A stretch of 64,000 bases of DNA from an uncultured Acidobacteriota bacterium (GCA_963804995.1 CAWDSK010000005.1:64001-128000); one strand, 5' to 3'. Numbered from the stretch's first letter, positions 43,428 through 62,065 are shown. Notes: a model not told the origin generated them from the sequence alone. Program-made: numbers and translations.

Positions 43428-44344
<917 letters not shown>

Positions 44345-46760: not shown

Positions 46761-48705
46761 GGTTGTGTCAAGAATTTTTGTCCCCTAAGGCGATAACCCA
46801 TTGAATTGCTGGGAGAAACTGGATTTTCTGCTTTCTCCCCCCTCCGGGTGCGCTTGACTAGGACGTTGGCGTGAGGTGCGGTCGGGTTGCCGCGCTTAAG
46901 TTCCTGGACGTAACTGCGTCGTGGGGCTTGACGGCAAACAAAAAGGGCGGTGAAGTCTCTCTTTCCCAATCCACCTTGTAGGGAACCCGCCAGGTTCCCG
47001 AGAGACTCACCGCCATGGGCAAGATACCACGATTGGTGCTTTGGCTCTGTAGGAAATTTACCCGCCAGGATTTGCAGGAACTGGTCGAGCAACTGCAAGA
47101 GATTCTCGCCGGGCGCCAGCCCGAGCCTCAACCCCGCGACGACTTTCGCCAGCAGCATCCACACTATCGCGACTTCTACGTTGACCCTCTGGCTCCCTTG
47201 ACCCAGCCGCCTCCGGCACCTCGCACCTGGAACTGGCGGCAGTTGCTGGCTCAGTACCAGCGCCAGCACCGCCGACCGTTGGCTCCGATTCAGCGTTCTG
47301 GCGCCCACCCCCTGCCTCCCACTTGTCGTTGTGCCCACTGCGGCGCACCGCGCGACTTCCTCTACCTCAACGATGGCCGTCACGCCCGCCAACTGCGCTG
47401 CAAAGTCTGTGGCCGGCTGTCGCAAATCGCTCGTCGTCATCGCCCGACGAAAACTCCTTACTGGTGCCCCTACTGCGGCAGCTCCCTCTTCCGCTGGAAG
47501 CAGCGTGCCGATTGCACCATCTACAAATGTCCTGGCGAGCGTTGTCCTCACTATCTCCAGAAGCAGCAAGCCCTGCACTGGAACGAGAAGTTGCTCCAGA
47601 AGCTGCGCCGCACGCAGTTCAAGCTGCGTTACCAGTATCGCGAATACCACTTTCAACCCGCCCAACTGGCCCCCACCGCTCCCGATCCGCCCACCGTCGA
47701 CCTCACCCGTCTGCATCGTTCTTCCGATGTCTTGGGCCTGGTGTTGGCCTTCCACATCTCTTTCGCCCTCTCCGCCCGCAAGACCGCCCAGGTCCTGCGG
47801 CAAGTCTTCGGCGTGCCTCTCAGCTACCAGTCCGTTCTCAACTATGCCCAGGCCGCCGCTTACTACTGCCACGCCTTCAACCTCCGCTACAAAGCCCCGC
47901 TCAGCGCCACCGCCACCGGCGACGAGACTTATATTCGCGTCGCGGGGAAGCACCCATACACGTTCTTCTTTCTCGATCCCCAAGGGCATCGCATCACGTC
48001 CTATCACGTGGCGCCGGAGCGCGATGCCTTGGCCGCCACCGTGGCCCTGGGCGAGGCCGCGCGCACCTTGCCCGAAGATCAGGCCCTGCGTTTCATCACC
48101 GACGGCAACCCCGCTTATCAGGCCGGCGTACACTTCCTCAACGCTCACCGCACCGCTTCCCAACCTCCCCATACCTTGCGGCAGGTCATCGGCCTGGAAA
48201 ACCTCGACGCGGTCTCCAAGGAATTCCGCCCCTTCAAGCAACTCATCGAACGTCTCAATCGCACCTACAAATACCACGTCCGCCCGGCTTGCGGCTTTGC
48301 CACGCGCAACGGCGCCGTGGCCCTCACCACCCTGTTCGTCACCCACTACAACTTCCTTCGCCCCCATCTGGCCCTGGGCTACCGCGTACCCATCCCCTTG
48401 CCGGAGTTGAGTTCCCTCACCACCTTGCAAGGCCAGTGGAACAAGATCCTCGCTCTCGCCCTGGCGGCCTGAGCCCGGTGGGAGTAAACTTCGCGGTGGC
48501 CGGGGCGGAGGATAGGGCTCCGCAGGGATGCGACCTGAGCGCCGACCCCGGGGCCGAGATCGGTCGGGAGCGAGCCCCACTCGCTCCCCCAGTCCAGACC
48601 CATCTTGGCACCAAAGCGATAAATCCTGGGGGTCTGGGGGCAAATCCCCCAGCTCTACCCACCTCCCGACCCTTCATTACCTTTCATAAAACTTTTGACA
48701 GAACC
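46761..48705 (+). mobile_element. IS6-like insertion sequence (1945 bp)
   Basis: TIR GGTTGTGTCAAGAATTTT / AAAACTTTTGACAGAACC; 8-bp direct repeat GGTCGGCT at 46753-60 and 48706-13. Confidence 0.87.
47015..48472 (+). CDS. DDE transposase (IS6/IS240-like core) with N-terminal Zn ribbons
   Basis: CAHC, CKVC, CPYC, CPGERC; GDETYI, ITDG, IERLNRTYK, YNFLRPH. Confidence 0.87.
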   Translation: MGKIPRLVLWLCRKFTRQDLQELVEQLQEILAGRQPEPQPRDDFRQQHPHYRDFYVDPLAPLTQPPPAPRTWNWRQLLAQYQRQHRRPLAPIQRSGAHPLPPTCRCAHCGAPRDFLYLNDGRHARQLRCKVCGRLSQIARRHRPTKTPYWCPYCGSSLFRWKQRADCTIYKCPGERCPHYLQKQQALHWNEKLLQKLRRTQFKLRYQYREYHFQPAQLAPTAPDPPTVDLTRLHRSSDVLGLVLAFHISFALSARKTAQVLRQVFGVPLSYQSVLNYAQAAAYYCHAFNLRYKAPLSATATGDETYIRVAGKHPYTFFFLDPQGHRITSYHVAPERDALAATVALGEAARTLPEDQALRFITDGNPAYQAGVHFLNAHRTASQPPHTLRQVIGLENLDAVSKEFRPFKQLIERLNRTYKYHVRPACGFATRNGAVALTTLFVTHYNFLRPHLALGYRVPIPLPELSSLTTLQGQWNKILALALAA

Positions 48706-49088: not shown

Positions 49089-49117
49089 TTGACGTGCGTT
49101 ACGTAACGCGTTACACT
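49089..49117 (+). promoter_or_regulatory. sigma70 promoter with palindromic operator
   Basis: TTGACG-N17-TACACT enclosing the perfect palindrome GCGTTACGTAACGC. Confidence 0.75.
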
Positions 49118-49123
49118 ACAGGT

Positions 49124-49417
49124 ATGATCCGGATAAAGAATCCACCCCACCCCGGCGGCTTTGTGCTGCGCCAGTGTATTGAGCCTTTGGGCTTGACGAT
49201 TACGGACGCCGCCGCCGCGCTCGGAGTCACGCGCACTACCCTGTCAGAGCTGGTGAACGAGAAGCGGGGGATTTCTCCCGAAATGGCCGTAAGGCTGTCG
49301 AAGGTTTTCGGAGGCAGCGCCGAAACCTGGCTCACGCAGCAGGCGCACTACGACCTTGCCCAGGTTCACGCCGACCGCATCAAGCTCAAGCGCCTCGAAT
49401 TGCGTTTGTCATCGTAG
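49124..49417 (+). CDS. higA: HigA-family antitoxin (orphan)
   Basis: [48 protein letters not shown]. Confidence 0.92.
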
Positions 49418-56737: not shown

Positions 56738-58345
56738 CTAGGGGCGATGGACGAGGGACAAGTTGTCGATAAACTCTTCTTCCGCCACCAGGTGCTCGCT
56801 GAATTCCCGCAGCGTCCGGTCTCCGATTGCGAGCAGCACCGTGGGATCGCCCGAAAGCTGGTAAGAAGCCATCTGCCTTTCGAACTTATCCAGGTCGATT
56901 CCCAGACGCTCGTGCGCGGTGTAGAAGGCTTGGACGGTTTCTGGGGTATCTGTAAAGGTTGGGAAAAGGGATTTCTCCTCCCGCCGGCAACTTTCCATCA
57001 CAAAGCTTTTGAAGAAATGCAGGGTCATGCGCAGCGCCGCGAGCACCGCCTGGCGTTCAATCGCATCCTCGCCGCGATGAAGGGTCAGCCCGGCGAGAAT
57101 CGCGTGCCAATCCTGCAATCCGGCGCGAATCTGCGCGTGCTCCTCCTTCCATTTCGACGCATCCGGCGCCAGCGTTTTGGCCCGAGGCTCACTTGCCGGG
57201 AGCGCCGTCTCGGGTCTGAGATATAGACTCTTGAGCCCGCGCGCGGCCAGCGCCTGCACCACTTCCCTCCGGCCGGGGAACCCGTGGGTTGAGAACTGGC
57301 CGGGCGTATCATGGTGCAGGTAGCCGCCCGGGAAGGTGTCACAATCCACCGTGAAGAGGTCTCCGGCCTCGACCATGGAGATGTTCATCTCGTAATTTTC
57401 GCGGGTATTAAAGAACAGGCGTGAGCCCGGGAAGGCGAGATGATAAAGGCTGAGGATCAGGCGGTAGTCGTCGTCGGATACCGTGAAGCGCGAGGATTTC
57501 TGCGACGCCAGGACGCCCCGCGCGGGCTTTAAGCGCGGAATGCCGATGGCGTGCGGGTCAAGACCGTAGGCGCGGCGCAGGTAGTTGCCGTGTTCGATGG
57601 TGGCCAGCGCGTTGTAGCGCCAATCGTAAAGCCCCAGCAGCGCCCCCAGCGCGATTTTCTCGATGCCTGCCCCGATGACGCGGTCCCACAAATCCAGGCG
57701 ATATTCGAAGTCCCGTTTAGGCGAGCCGGTCACGTGCCAGCGATCGAAGTGGGGCTGGTGGTAAGTCTCCTGCCACTCGACCACCCATTCGAGTCCGGCG
57801 GCGCGGAGGCGCACGTAGTCCTCGCGCTCATAAACCGGCGAGCAGAGCCCCACCACCCCGCCGCCCAGGCAATCGAGCTTCTGCCGCGTCAGCTCAACGT
57901 ACCGCGCCACCACGTCAGGGCCGAACTGGGGGTCTTCTGAGAGCACCAGCTCAATCTGCCGGTGGCCCCAGGAGAGAATCAGGTCGAGTTCGCGGCTGAA
58001 CTCGTCCAGGCTCAGGCGGACGCGCTCAGCCAGCGCATTGCTCTGGCGGTAGCCGCAGTAGAGGCACTCGTTTTCGCAGAAGCTGGTGAGATAAACGGGG
58101 ATGACGAATTCGACGGTATGCGGAGCCAGCCGTTCGCGAACCTGCCGCGCCGCCGCGTGGATTTCCGCGACCCGCTCGGGAGTGCGCGCCCAGGCAATCA
58201 GCGCCGCCGCGTCTTCCACATCCAGGCCGGGATTGGACTCCGCCGCTTCGAGAATCGCCGGCAGCGAACGCGTGGGTTCGGTGAGCGCCGCAAGTGACTC
58301 GATGCGAGCGTCAGAGACGCGGAAGACTTCACTGAATGTTGCCAC
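56738..58345 (-). CDS. ThiH/HydG-like radical SAM enzyme fused to a hemerythrin-like domain
   Basis: PVYLTSFCENECLYCGY, WQETY, LGALLGL, PRLKPA, TRE, PGGY...GQF; C-terminal EEH / REEKSLFP / AHE / EHLVAEE. Confidence 0.82.
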   Translation of the reverse strand: MATFSEVFRVSDARIESLAALTEPTRSLPAILEAAESNPGLDVEDAAALIAWARTPERVAEIHAAARQVRERLAPHTVEFVIPVYLTSFCENECLYCGYRQSNALAERVRLSLDEFSRELDLILSWGHRQIELVLSEDPQFGPDVVARYVELTRQKLDCLGGGVVGLCSPVYEREDYVRLRAAGLEWVVEWQETYHQPHFDRWHVTGSPKRDFEYRLDLWDRVIGAGIEKIALGALLGLYDWRYNALATIEHGNYLRRAYGLDPHAIGIPRLKPARGVLASQKSSRFTVSDDDYRLILSLYHLAFPGSRLFFNTRENYEMNISMVEAGDLFTVDCDTFPGGYLHHDTPGQFSTHGFPGRREVVQALAARGLKSLYLRPETALPASEPRAKTLAPDASKWKEEHAQIRAGLQDWHAILAGLTLHRGEDAIERQAVLAALRMTLHFFKSFVMESCRREEKSLFPTFTDTPETVQAFYTAHERLGIDLDKFERQMASYQLSGDPTVLLAIGDRTLREFSEHLVAEEEFIDNLSLVHRP

Positions 58346-58519
58346 GACGCTAAGACCTCCCGGTTCAGGGAAAAATCACAGACAATCGAGGGCCAAACAG
58401 ATACTCAGCAATCCCCACTCCATGATGAACCCGGAGGGGCAGGTTTGGGAATAGACAGAATGTCCGGTGGGTGCGAAATGGGCTTCCGGTCTTCGAAACC
58501 GCCAGGGGTTGCCAGTTTC

Positions 58520-59634
58520 CGCGTGCCGGATTTGGCCTCACGCTCGGATATCAACCTACCGATAACCGATGTGGGGGAGTGTGGCACAGCGGGGGAGGGC
58601 AATCGGGTGATTTGCGAATGCGATTTGTGATTGGTGATTTTTGCAGTCGGCCTTTGATTCATCTTTTTACTTGGCGCCACCGATAACCGATGTGGGGGAG
58701 TGTGGCACAGGGCGGATTGGTTCATTGATTCATCGGTTCATTGGTTCATTGATTCATTGGGCCGTCGGGTCATTTGCGATTTGTGATTGGTGATTGGGCG
58801 GTTGCCGATCCTCCGGCGTGCCGAATTGGGCTCATGTTCAGTGATAAACCTTCCGATAACCGTAGCGGGAGAGTGTGGCACAGCGCGGCGGGTTGGTCAG
58901 TGGTCAGTCGAATTTGCCCCATCCCTAGTCCCCAGCACCAAGTCCCTAACCCCTGCCTTTCCCGTGGCACTGCGCGGATGGGTTCATTGATTTATCGGGC
59001 CATTGAATCATTGATTGATCGGGCCATCGGTTCTTTGAATCATCGGATCATTGGGTCATTTAATGATTTGTGATTGGGCGGTCGCCGATTCTCTGGCGCG
59101 CCGAATTGCGCTCATGCTCGGACCTCAACCCACCGATAACCGATACGGGGGAGTGTGTCACGGCGGGGGTCGGGGGGTCGGTGGGCGAAGGGGGGCGAGC
59201 AAGCGTAGCGCGGACCTCCGCCGTTGAGGTCCGCGGTTCTTCGTATGCAATTTGAGCGAAGGTATCATGGCGAAGCAGCAGTCGCGCGACGGTTGGAGCT
59301 ACGTTTGCTATTCCCTCGTCAGCACCACCCCTTTTTCTTGTCAGCACCACCCCGTCGCTCAGCCCCGATGATCAATTTGGAAAGAACGCGCTATCGGGGC
59401 ACGGCGCGCCACCCCTCCTCATCTGAGGCGGGGAGTTCTTTAAAGCTCCCCTCCTGATTTAGGAGGGGTGGCGCTCCGAGCGCCGGGGTGGTTACGGGAG
59501 CACCTGGGGCAAAGGGATGGTAAATCCCTCCGCCGCGCCGCGTTACCCAATCTGCGCCACCTGCTACAGTCGGTTTTTGGCCTCATCTTCGGGCATCAAC
59601 CCACCGATAACCGATATGGGGGAGTGTCACGGCC
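58520..59634 (+). repeat. Five copies of a ~70-bp direct repeat (core CCGATAACCGatnnGGGgGAGTGT(gg/gt)CAC)
   Basis: CCGATAAC starts at 58559, 58680, 58853, 59133 and 59604. Confidence 0.92.
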
Positions 59635-59686
59635 GGGGAGAAGGGATTCGGGACTCGGGATTTGGGGCTGGGGGCGGACAGCAAGC

Positions 59687-59761
59687 GTAGCGGCGGGTTT
59701 ACCCCGCCATTTGGCGAGGTACACTCGCTAGCAGGAAATGGCGGGGTAAACCCGCCGCTAC
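59687..59761. repeat. GTAG-type REP doublet (GTAGCGGCGGGTTTACCCCGCCA)
   Basis: Inverted pair; further copies at 60671-60738 and 60-96. Confidence 0.85.
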
Positions 59762-59955
59762 GAAGCAACAACCCTCAGACGCGAAGCCGGCTCTGGGGCG
59801 CAGGGTGCTCGGCCCTACATGAACCACCGGCGCTTGCCGCTGGCGCATCGGGCAGGAGGAAAGCCCCCAGTCATGACGGGTTGTCCGCCATTAAGATAAG
59901 TTGACGTTCAGCCGCGGCGACACTGGGGTTATCCGCTTGCACCGACCTTATGGGG

Positions 59956-59991: not shown

Positions 59992-60282
59992 GTGAAAATA
60001 CGGAACTTCACCCACAAGGGCCTGAAAAGGCTCTACGAAGAAGACAGCTCCCAAGGGGTTTACCCCGACACGGTGGATAAGCTCCGTAAGATGCTGGCAT
60101 TTCTTGATGACATGCAAGACCCGGAGGAGTTGCGTTCGCTCTCGAGCTGGAAAGTTCACACGCTGACCGGCGACCGCAAGGGTACCTGGAGCCTGAGCGT
60201 CACCCGCAACCGGCGTTTGACGTTTTGCATCGACCGGGGGGAGCGCGAAATCTACGACCTGAATTTGGAAGACTATCACTAG
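59992..60282 (+). CDS. higB: HigB-family (RelE-like) toxin
   Basis: IRNFTHKGLKRLY, HTLTGDRKGTWSLSVTRNRRLTF, LEDYH. Confidence 0.93.
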   Translation: MKIRNFTHKGLKRLYEEDSSQGVYPDTVDKLRKMLAFLDDMQDPEELRSLSSWKVHTLTGDRKGTWSLSVTRNRRLTFCIDRGEREIYDLNLEDYH

Positions 60283-60301
60283 GACGGAGGAAGCAAACGC
60301 C

Positions 60302-60604
60302 ATGCCCATGAAGAACCCGCCCCATCCCGGAGATTTTATTCGGACGGAGATTATTGAGCCCGCGGGCCTGTCGGTGACCGCGGCAGCAGCGGCGCTGCAG
60401 ATTTCCCGGCCTACCCTGTCGAGCTTACTTAACGGCAAGGCCAGCCTTTCCGGAAACATGGCGCTGCGCGTTGAAAAAGCTTTTGGCGTGAAGATGGACA
60501 CGCTCCTGCGCATGCAAACCTCCTACGATATCGCCCAGACGCGCAAGCGCGAGAACCAGATCCATGTCCGGCGCATTCACCCGCTCGCCGAAATTTCCGC
60601 CTGA
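60302..60604 (+). CDS. higA: HigA-family antitoxin
   Basis: MKNPPHPG, MALRVEKAFG, MQTSYD. Confidence 0.93.
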   Translation: MPMKNPPHPGDFIRTEIIEPAGLSVTAAAAALQISRPTLSSLLNGKASLSGNMALRVEKAFGVKMDTLLRMQTSYDIAQTRKRENQIHVRRIHPLAEISA

Positions 60605-61033: not shown

Positions 61034-61309
61034 TTAGGGCCGGTCCTGAACGCCGTGATAAATCCGCAAGACTTCTATGCTCTGCTCCTTTACGCGATAG
61101 ACAGCGATGTAGGGCAGGGGAGGGAACAAAAGCTCCCGGGTTCCATCCTCACGTCCGAGCCGGCCACGATGCGGCCACTCCTTTAGGGATCGGATGGCGG
61201 CGTACATTTTACGCAGGGTCGGCTGCCGGTATTGTGGATGGTGGTCCTTCAGGTAATCGCTGATGTGCTGTAGGTCTGTCGCGGCGGCCGGGGTCCAGCG
61301 GATAAGCAT
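61034..61309 (-). CDS. ParE/RelE-family toxin
   Basis: IRWTPAAATDL, PHRGR, GTREL, PYIAVYRV, VLRIYHG. Confidence 0.9.
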   Translation of the reverse strand: MLIRWTPAAATDLQHISDYLKDHHPQYRQPTLRKMYAAIRSLKEWPHRGRLGREDGTRELLFPPLPYIAVYRVKEQSIEVLRIYHGVQDRP

Positions 61310-61311
61310 TC

Positions 61312-61536
61312 TTATGACCGCAGCATCTGCTCCAGGCGGGCGTCCATTTCCTCTTCCTCGATGAACTCGCCCCGGTCGGCCTGGGCAATACCCTGGCGCA
61401 CGGCGGCACGAAAGCGGGCTTCTTCCTCAAGGAGACGCACGGCGGCATCTTTCACCAACCGTTCGGCGTCGATGCCTTCCTGGGTGGCGATCTGCGCAAG
61501 CTGCGCTTCCTGCTCAGGGGTGAAATGTATTTCCAT
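61312..61536 (-). CDS. Cognate antitoxin (ParD/CopG-like)
   Basis: MEIHFTPEQEAQL...AVRQGIAQADRGEFIEEEEM; immediately upstream of the toxin. Confidence 0.85.
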   Translation of the reverse strand: MEIHFTPEQEAQLAQIATQEGIDAERLVKDAAVRLLEEEARFRAAVRQGIAQADRGEFIEEEEMDARLEQMLRS

Positions 61537-62065
61537 GACCCTCAGGATACGGGAAAACCCCACGTGTTGCAAGTTGCGCTGAGGTTCAGCGCGTTTAACT
61601 CGCCACTATCCACTATCTACTATCCACTGTTCTTCTGAGCTTCGCTTGCCGCTCGCGTATCGGTCAGGAGAAAAGCCTACTGTCAGGGCGGGTCGCCAGC
61701 CATTAAGATGGGCGGACTTTCAGCCGCGGCGACACTGTGGCCACCCACTCGAAAATCGAAACACATGGTTTGATTTCAGAGCATGGCAGAGGCTTTCCTC
61801 CGCAGCAGGGGGTAGCCACGGTCAACGTTCTAATGACCGTGGGCTTTTCTCATGCCCACTGCAATTGACCGCAAAATCCATCACCAAAGGAAGACCCATA
61901 GTCAGAACTGCACTGACTGTGGCTACCCGCCTGTGTAAAAGGGTACGATCGCAACCAAACTGAGCTGGGAAGTTCCAAAGCAACGCCGGGAGGTGTACAC
62001 TCAAGCCATTCGGGGTTCCGGCATGGAAATCAATACCCACCCCTGCGAACGTCGAGGACGAGAAT

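Follow-up and report, generated by a model that had tools for sequence, protein, structure and literature searches.

What kind of enzyme is encoded at positions 56738 to 58345 of the window (the whole stretch of DNA analysed, 64,000 nucleotides from an uncultured Acidobacteriota bacterium)? The initial annotation had read the gene as a ThiH/HydG-like radical SAM enzyme fused to a hemerythrin-like domain. The ORF and its coordinates 56738-58345 are real, and the motifs cited, CxxxCxxC (C90/C94/C97), WQETY, GALLGL, PRL, TRE, PGGY and GQF, were all located in the translation. Pfam assigned Radical_SAM (PF04055) to aa 85-236 (35.6 bits for a cut-off of 29.5) and Hemerythrin (PF01814) to aa 398-523 (28 bits for a cut-off of 25.3; 33.1 bits with the tail alone). 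The CxxxCxxC motif and the PF04055 match above gathering score place the protein in the radical SAM superfamily; a full barrel, an N-terminal helical domain and the Arg of T-R-E (R315, in 120/120 homologues) place it in the ThiH/HydG/NosL fold group. The fusion is a genuine architecture, both Pfam domains being present in 113 of the best 120 homologues (62-84% identity). In conclusion, the gene is a real, lineage-wide fusion of a ThiH/HydG-family radical enzyme and a di-iron domain, with the following features.

56738..58345, minus strand: CDS of the radical SAM-hemerythrin/HHE fusion, 535 aa, GTG start; N-terminus xSTFSEVF, conserved family-wide
58121..58345, minus strand: N-terminal helical domain, aa 1-75 (AF2 model; structural alignment to ThiH and HydG from residue 1-3)
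57212..58120, minus strand: (beta/alpha)8 radical SAM barrel, aa 76-378 (Pfam, AF2 model, structure matches)
58055..58078, minus strand: CxxxCxxC [4Fe-4S]/SAM motif, C90, C94 and C97, invariant in 120/120 homologues
57950..57952, minus strand: Glu132 in strand 2, a clade signature (106/106 unfused clade members versus 2/85 others)
57842..57844, minus strand: Cys168, aligned with ThiH Glu158, a carboxylate contact (PMC9046217); 120/120 homologues, mostly Asn in the unfused clade
57761..57775, minus strand: WQETY, with Trp191 for ThiH Tyr181 of the dehydroglycine exit gate, whose partner Tyr76 is Val81 (residue map, same source)
57383..57406, minus strand: T314-R315...N321, ThiH T299 and amino-acid-binding R300 kept, phenolate R306 replaced by Asn (residue map, same source)
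57341..57352, minus strand: T332-V-D334-C335 for ThiH S318-A-G-S321, distal ring pocket (residue map, same source)
57155..57211, minus strand: linker, aa 379-397, poorly conserved (0.54), pLDDT <50 at 382-392
56750..57154, minus strand: hemerythrin/HHE four-helix bundle, aa 398-532 (Pfam, model, ligand alignment)
57137-57139, minus strand: ligand H403 (family alignment)
56990-56992, minus strand: ligand position 452, Ser in the window copy, His in the family
56978-56980, minus strand: ligand E456 (family alignment)
56912-56914, minus strand: ligand H478 (family alignment)
56792-56794, minus strand: ligand H518 (family alignment)
56780-56782, minus strand: ligand E522 (family alignment)

Our main reading, to which we give a probability of about 0.5, is that the protein would represent an undescribed third branch of radical SAM amino-acid lyases, next to ThiH/HydG and NosL, acting on a non-phenolate aromatic amino acid and carrying an accessory RIC/YtfE-type di-iron domain for O2/NO sensing or cluster repair. 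Neither the fusion nor the clade to which its barrel belongs was found described in the literature searched, which took in few subscription journals; the accessible parts of PMC4919030, PMC4916742 and PMC8593015 held no such description, the supplementary domain-architecture figures of PMC4919030 lying outside that scope.

The barrel model was closest to HydG (Z 39.4, rmsd 2.5, 355 aligned), followed by ThiH (Z 38.4, rmsd 2.7, 355 aligned) and NosL (Z 34.5, rmsd 3.1, 359 aligned). An N-terminal helical domain of this type also occurs in ThiH, HydG, NosL and BioB, according to PMC9046217. The best NCBIfam models for the 535-aa ORF were thiH, HydG and NosL, each under its cut-off (191.6/380, 141/312 and 67/400 bits, respectively). 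The pocket was mapped by carrying over the TcThiH residues given in PMC9046217 via PDB sequence and profile alignments, with no use of model coordinates. Pro83, Tyr85, Thr314 and Arg315 are retained in the fusion barrel, and the changes are R306 to N, E158 to C, S318 to T, G320 to D, S321 to C, Y76 to V and Y181 to W. The ThiH Tyr-binding set T299/R300/R306/S318/S321/E158 is incomplete, N321, T332, C335 and C168 differing from it. Strand 8 has the same length as in ThiH, with its beta-bulge retained; PMC9046217 gives R306 and the beta-bulge as the two primary Tyr markers. The pocket is coherent but unlike that of ThiH, which suggests a substrate other than tyrosine. It probably still fits one ring, because the bulge that marks Tyr lyases versus NosL is retained, and the phenolate is probably no longer stabilised; with the bulge retained, Tyr therefore stays a possible substrate.

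A tree of 203 barrels (sequence hits shorter than 330 aa, proteins from the loci shorter than 300 aa and rows with fewer than 230 filled columns left out) placed the fusion family inside a clade of 118, apart from ThiH/HydG (FastTree support 0.986). The rebuilt pocket extends beyond the fusion. Gly268 is present in 106/106 unfused clade members versus 2/85 others, and Arg at 321 in only 1/106 versus 77/85. Cys335 is found in 98/106, for Ser in 65 of the 85 others; the position of ThiH G320 is Asp or Asn in 82/106. Trp191 is present in 105/106, a count that is partly circular, since 80 metagenome loci were retrieved with the W-Q/M-ETY pattern. The nearest unfused relatives have the same pocket as the fusion apart from Asn at 168, and lie in LIV/methyltransferase operons; the joining of the fusion family with this LIV-operon group has a support of just 94/82. 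On these comparisons of sequence, the barrel is none of ThiH, HydG and NosL and belongs to a separate undescribed clade in which the predicted amino-acid-binding Arg is kept and the phenolate Arg is gone. The possibility that the fusion might be an ordinary ThiH or HydG variant is answered in the same way: it falls below both curated cut-offs, in a separate clade and with a rebuilt pocket. Two other architectures were seen in this clade: a radical SAM-SIR2-FCD fusion in Ca. Methanoperedens (P0139, P0161) and a radical SAM protein with a C-terminal domain that looks like a methyltransferase by inspection (L139:6890-8731).

Compared with the characterised enzymes, the fusion shares with ThiH (TIGR02351; TcThiH 7PD1/7PD2; PMC9046217) the barrel with its N-terminal helical domain, CxxxCxxC, R300/T299 and the strand-8 bulge length; it differs by its low thiH score, its rebuilt pocket and gate, the new Glu132, the extra di-iron domain and the fact that it is never beside thiG (0/57 loci). 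HydG (TIGR03955; 4WCX, 4RTB) is the best fold match and also carries a C-terminal metal-binding extension, which in the fusion is predicted. However, that of HydG is a Cys-ligated Fe-S domain, and that of the fusion is a hemerythrin-like bundle with one Cys. As initially noted, there is no HydG-type C-terminal Cys motif: the Cys residues of the whole ORF are 90, 94, 97, 159, 168, 335 and 453 only, and only C453 lies past the barrel. A HydG role was rejected on this account, together with the score under the HydG cut-off and the lack of HydE/HydF in the window's assembly (G000, 92% complete); in G410, a genome that carries the fusion, HydG occurs as a separate protein together with HydE/F. NosL, the tryptophan lyase (TIGR04158; 4R33), has the same fold and also lacks an R306 equivalent and the E158 acid. 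It differs in that the one-residue bulge kept in the fusion is absent from NosL and in the fusion's score of 67/400 bits; no thiopeptide cluster was seen in the fusion loci.

That the tail is of the hemerythrin/HHE type is borne out by the Pfam score over cut-off, by its modelling as a four-helix bundle (pLDDT 91) and by a di-iron ligand set. Its best structure matches were 3cax (Z 15.2, rmsd 2.6, 141 aligned) and 2p0n (Z 15.1, rmsd 3.1, 138 aligned), barely above the Z 14.0 of generic helical bundles; a Foldseek search with the bundle model gave no match at E<=1e-3. We take 3CAX (PF0695) and 2P0N (NMB1532), uncharacterised by their entry titles, to be hemerythrin-like proteins. Hemerythrins that carry O2 bind it reversibly and have five His plus Glu/Asp. 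In the fusion only four His are conserved, and DcrH-Hr ranked 31 (Z 11.5). The full set of four His and two Glu, arranged as H, HxxxE, H, HxxxE, is present in 112 of 116 aligned homologues (the best 120 minus four truncated matches); conservation is high (0.86) over these six ligands and the hairpin of helices 3 and 4. H403/H452xxxE456/H478/H518xxxE522 aligns with the ligand order of E. coli YtfE, H84/H129/E133/H160/H204/E208 in PMC9268430. The site is of the RIC/YtfE type and complete at family level, and incomplete in the window copy (Ser452). The likeness to RIC/YtfE and other HHE proteins (PF01814; PMC9268430) thus concerns ligand order and the four-helix bundle. The fusion differs by the lack of ScdA_N (no Pfam match in the fusion protein), the junction to a radical SAM barrel, the Cys after the first HxxxE His and, in the window copy, a Ser for one His.

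The statement that a Cys stands in place of the first HxxxE His does not hold, since HxxxE spans 452-456, Cys453 is the next residue and it is position 452 that is Ser in the window copy. The family motif is H-C-x-x-E-E, with His452 in 114/116 and Cys453 in 116/116 homologues. Cys453 as a metal ligand was ruled out: it follows the His in a hydrophobic slot, which is filled by Phe in genus g249; in NMB1532 the same slot holds a second His. Among short matches, stand-alone relatives of the bundle were also discarded, as the 46 found look like pieces of fusions by identity and contig size (P0283 was traced to a frameshifted locus).

The fusion was found in 59/133 genomes of the window's Acidobacteriota family, in 0/4 genomes from the other family of the order and, as a full-length protein, in 0/400 further genomes sampled from the phylum. 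Clustering at 50% identity put the whole family under one full-length representative, and in the ESM Atlas 132 members of the same architecture form one cluster, which bears an automatic name; source records name the homologues 2-iminoacetate synthase or hemerythrin-domain protein. Genera cluster together on the barrel tree, so vertical descent fits. L048 and L052 lack the di-iron domain, and L049 and L053 carry it in decayed form. All four are nested within the family and pair up with supports of 99/93 and 93/99; the domain was therefore lost or decayed at least twice. Because of these losses, the di-iron domain is classed as accessory and predicted to be dispensable for catalysis. The sensing or protective role first proposed for it fits the repeated loss, and also the redox operon that lies upstream in other genera. 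The di-iron domain probably protects or switches the radical enzyme. Several other searches were empty: PADLOC had no match for the fusion protein, a promoter/terminator scan gave no surplus over shuffled sequence, none of the best 30 of 35 plasmid records spanned the bundle, and no RNA run was among the public sequencing runs listed for the gene. The barrel-bundle complex prediction, with a score of 0.00, spoke neither for nor against docking.

In the window, the fusion is surrounded by housekeeping genes, with thiL about 46 kb away. The early remark that neither thiG/thiS nor hydEF lies nearby agrees with profile scans of 41 other window genes (of 55 called), which were empty for thiG and hydE/F at E<=1e-25, as were those of the direct neighbours. 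Apart from one weak ThiF-like match, thiG/E/C and hydF/E were found in none of 57 fusion loci or 84 unfused clade loci. The convergent M20 peptidase-OPT pair to which the initial annotation drew attention is real, but its link to the fusion did not stand: the pair is a neighbour in just 4/44 loci, with one new case (L187) in 14 more loci, several of them repeats, and it was rejected as a partner. In genus g1, DUF1015 is upstream of the fusion (15/44 loci). In g232, g235, g243, g245 and g249, the fusion is downstream of a redox operon (12/44 loci, some with the operon partial) in the order two GcvH-like genes, HmcB-like ferredoxin, HmcC/NrfD-like gene, CxxCH kinase, sigma-54 regulator and archaemetzincin. 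The kinase has its CxxCH motif in 11/11 full-length copies, and the gap between archaemetzincin gene and fusion is 2-181 bp in 10/44 loci. The NrfD gene of the window's assembly has a match in 72/133 family genomes; both this gene and the fusion were found in 50 genomes, the fusion only in 9, NrfD only in 22 and neither in 52, these being kin genomes and not independent. Both the DUF1015 and the redox-operon clusters are elsewhere in the window's assembly, so the fusion gene has moved in that genome.

A few observations were made around these loci. The redox operon of the window's assembly (G000:C1:615640-623927; two GcvH-like genes, 4Fe-4S, NrfD, CxxCH kinase, sigma-54 regulator, archaemetzincin) has no catalytic subunit in view and adjoins genes that look like feoAB and CRP/FNR by inspection. 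A 549-aa protein without Pfam or NCBIfam match (L051:5826-7475 and relatives) is directly downstream of the fusion in 9/44 loci. Upstream of the fusion, window 58490-59762 is non-coding and contains five copies of a 77-nt repeat, tandem runs of the ATTGATTC type and a perfect 27-bp inverted repeat; these look like dispersed intergenic repeats. The peptidase-OPT-fusion block is flanked by a DDE transposase and several pairs of toxin-antitoxin type (window 47015-48472, 49094-49417, 59992-60604, 61034-61572; HigA confirmed twice), so a rearranged region fits. A XerC-like gene (window 43428-44344) appears as two ORFs.

The unfused clade members have neighbours of another kind. A methyltransferase was fused or within 3 genes in 43/84 unfused loci (37/71 groups at 90%), an EgtD-like one in 19/84 (17/71), and LIV transporter genes were present in 27/84 (26/71). 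In canonical ThiH/HydG control loci the corresponding values were 2/29, 0/29 and 0/29, with thi or hyd neighbours in 22/29; controls were scored with Pfam at 1e-12 and test loci with BLAST clusters. PF10017 was over cut-off in 12 of 13 EgtD-like neighbours examined, which match EgtD weakly and in the N-terminal half only. A LIV binding protein, a permease and three methyltransferases from the unfused operons, used as queries, matched in 0/57 fusion loci. Co-occurrence of the fusion with canonical EgtD was rejected, EgtD being present in 98/133 genomes and missing from several fusion carriers. With these partners absent from fusion loci and EgtD not tracking the fusion, the unfused operons may therefore not reflect the role of the fusion.

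A recurrent unfused operon (L083, L084, L088, L100, L105, L106, L112, L126, L142, L150 and others) has the order LIV binding protein, TM-/PNP-linked protein, methyltransferase(s), clade radical SAM, two permeases and two ATPases; one of the TM-/PNP-linked proteins looks DUF6879-like by Atlas features, and TIR proteins are upstream in L115 and L133. This operon, undescribed in the literature searched, may make and import a small-molecule signal. In L143, L145-L149, L153 and L157, the clade radical SAM gene is followed by a methyltransferase (EgtD-like in L143 and L145-L149), and a divergent TrmB-type regulator is present in several of them. In L064 and L065, clade members are in polysaccharide clusters with CapK/PaaK-looking ligases and B12-radical SAM genes.

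Readings other than a lyase of a third branch were weighed against these results. An enzyme that is still a tyrosine lyase, producing p-cresol and dehydroglycine or glyoxylate from a neutral phenol bound by Thr/Thr/Cys/Asp and passing its product to a non-thiamin pathway, is unlikely. Its closest folds are indeed ThiH and HydG, and in the residue map to PMC9046217 T299 is kept, S318 to T and S321 to C are conservative and the length of the strand-8 bulge is kept. However, R306, named there as a primary Tyr marker, is gone almost clade-wide, 1/106 keeping the Arg, and G320 has become Asp or Asn in 82/106. It is very improbable that the di-iron domain is itself catalytic, the protein being a two-step enzyme in which this domain oxidises or scavenges the product of the barrel, or reduces nitrite or NO as reported for YtfE. 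The strong conservation of the ligands and hairpin would suit such a role, as would the reactivity of YtfE-type sites with NO and nitrite described in PMC9268430; on the other hand, two nested members lack the domain, in two more it has decayed, and the unfused relatives that share the pocket do not have it. As to the window copy, we see an even chance that it is losing its metal site or that the Ser452 codon is an assembly error, which would leave the family function unaffected and is compatible with the other readings. It has four changes at 48 conserved bundle positions (Ser452 and three others) for a median of 1, at least 4 being found in 7/89 close homologues, and other genes of the same assembly are frameshift-split, probably by assembly errors: thiG (C4:138002-138740), thiO (C6:1081325-1082384) and selB (C5:338038-339949). 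Against decay or error, AGT at codon 452, for CAT in three relatives checked, is a two-base difference with no indel, and the five other ligands are intact. The di-iron site may be weakened in the window genome by His452Ser.

A role in thiamin synthesis overlaps the lyase of a third branch in chemistry and differs from it in role. The fusion would here be a co-opted dehydroglycine synthase, an anoxic stand-in for the O2-dependent ThiO switched on at low O2 by the di-iron domain, with Tyr or another aromatic amino acid as substrate; we regard this as rather doubtful. ThiG is present in 125/133 family genomes, and the fusion gene is the sole thiH-model match in the window's assembly, in which thiG and a thiO-like gene are present elsewhere, both as the split genes mentioned above. 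The redox operon context fits as well. On the other side, ThiO is present in 109/133 genomes, most fusion carriers included. In favour of the role, a recheck of 10 of the 24 ThiO-negative genomes left 5 without any ThiO trace at 1e-8, of which 4 carry the fusion; the apparent ThiO losses in G403, G420, G462 and G531 were rejected as split genes. The four supporting genomes (G488-G490, all of genus g249, and G491) have the fusion, ThiG and ThiC, and no ThiO or canonical ThiH was found in them, but they represent 2 lineages and are 85-96% complete; in G504, ThiG and ThiC are present and neither ThiO, canonical ThiH nor the fusion was found. The absence of the fusion from the side of thiG (0/57 loci, versus thi neighbours in 11/29 canonical control loci) also speaks against this role; it counts less, since in the 16 family loci examined thiG does not lie with other thi genes. 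Finally, the exit gate that hands dehydroglycine to ThiG in PMC9046217 is rebuilt (Y76V, Y181W).

For a lyase of a third branch, a mechanism can be proposed from ThiH chemistry: SAM would be cleaved, the 5'-deoxyadenosyl radical would abstract a hydrogen from the alpha-amine of a free L-amino acid that Arg315 holds in place, and cleavage of a C-C bond would follow. The most likely outcome would be Calpha-Cbeta cleavage to dehydroglycine and a methyl-(hetero)arene, with rearrangement as in NosL a possible alternative. The pocket points to a side chain that would be neutral or cationic, not phenolate. Tentatively, the substrate may be His or a methyl-His; Trp, Phe or O-methyl-Tyr is an equally tentative proposal, His being our single best guess from the residues of the pocket. 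Homology and operon context suggest that the di-iron domain would sense O2/NO or donate iron to repair the [4Fe-4S] cluster, and the enzyme would therefore work across oxic-anoxic swings. A more elaborate and improbable proposal is that of a histidine-cleaving (or other non-Tyr) enzyme with its own RIC-type di-iron switch or repair unit, which would supply dehydroglycine when O2 is too low for ThiO. Its origin would lie in the wider clade, where LIV/methyltransferase operons that also include PNP-, TIR- or SIR2-linked partners may serve to produce a small-molecule signal and take it up. If true, this proposal would provide a third route to thiamin thiazole and, as far as the literature searched goes, a radical SAM enzyme that is the first to bring its own iron-repair domain.

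Three reaction types have been characterised in the ThiH/HydG/NosL group, and the default database label for the present clade is '2-iminoacetate synthase'; if a separate branch is true, many thiH annotations in these genomes would be corrected. Its different but coherent pocket allows the rules that PMC9046217 sets out for the choice of substrate and bond (R306, bulge, E158, exit gate) to be tested directly, and the clade may extend radical chemistry by a new reaction of a common amino acid. With fused, unfused and decayed forms side by side in one family, nature has in effect set up an experiment on how an O2-labile [4Fe-4S] enzyme stays functional under changing oxygen.
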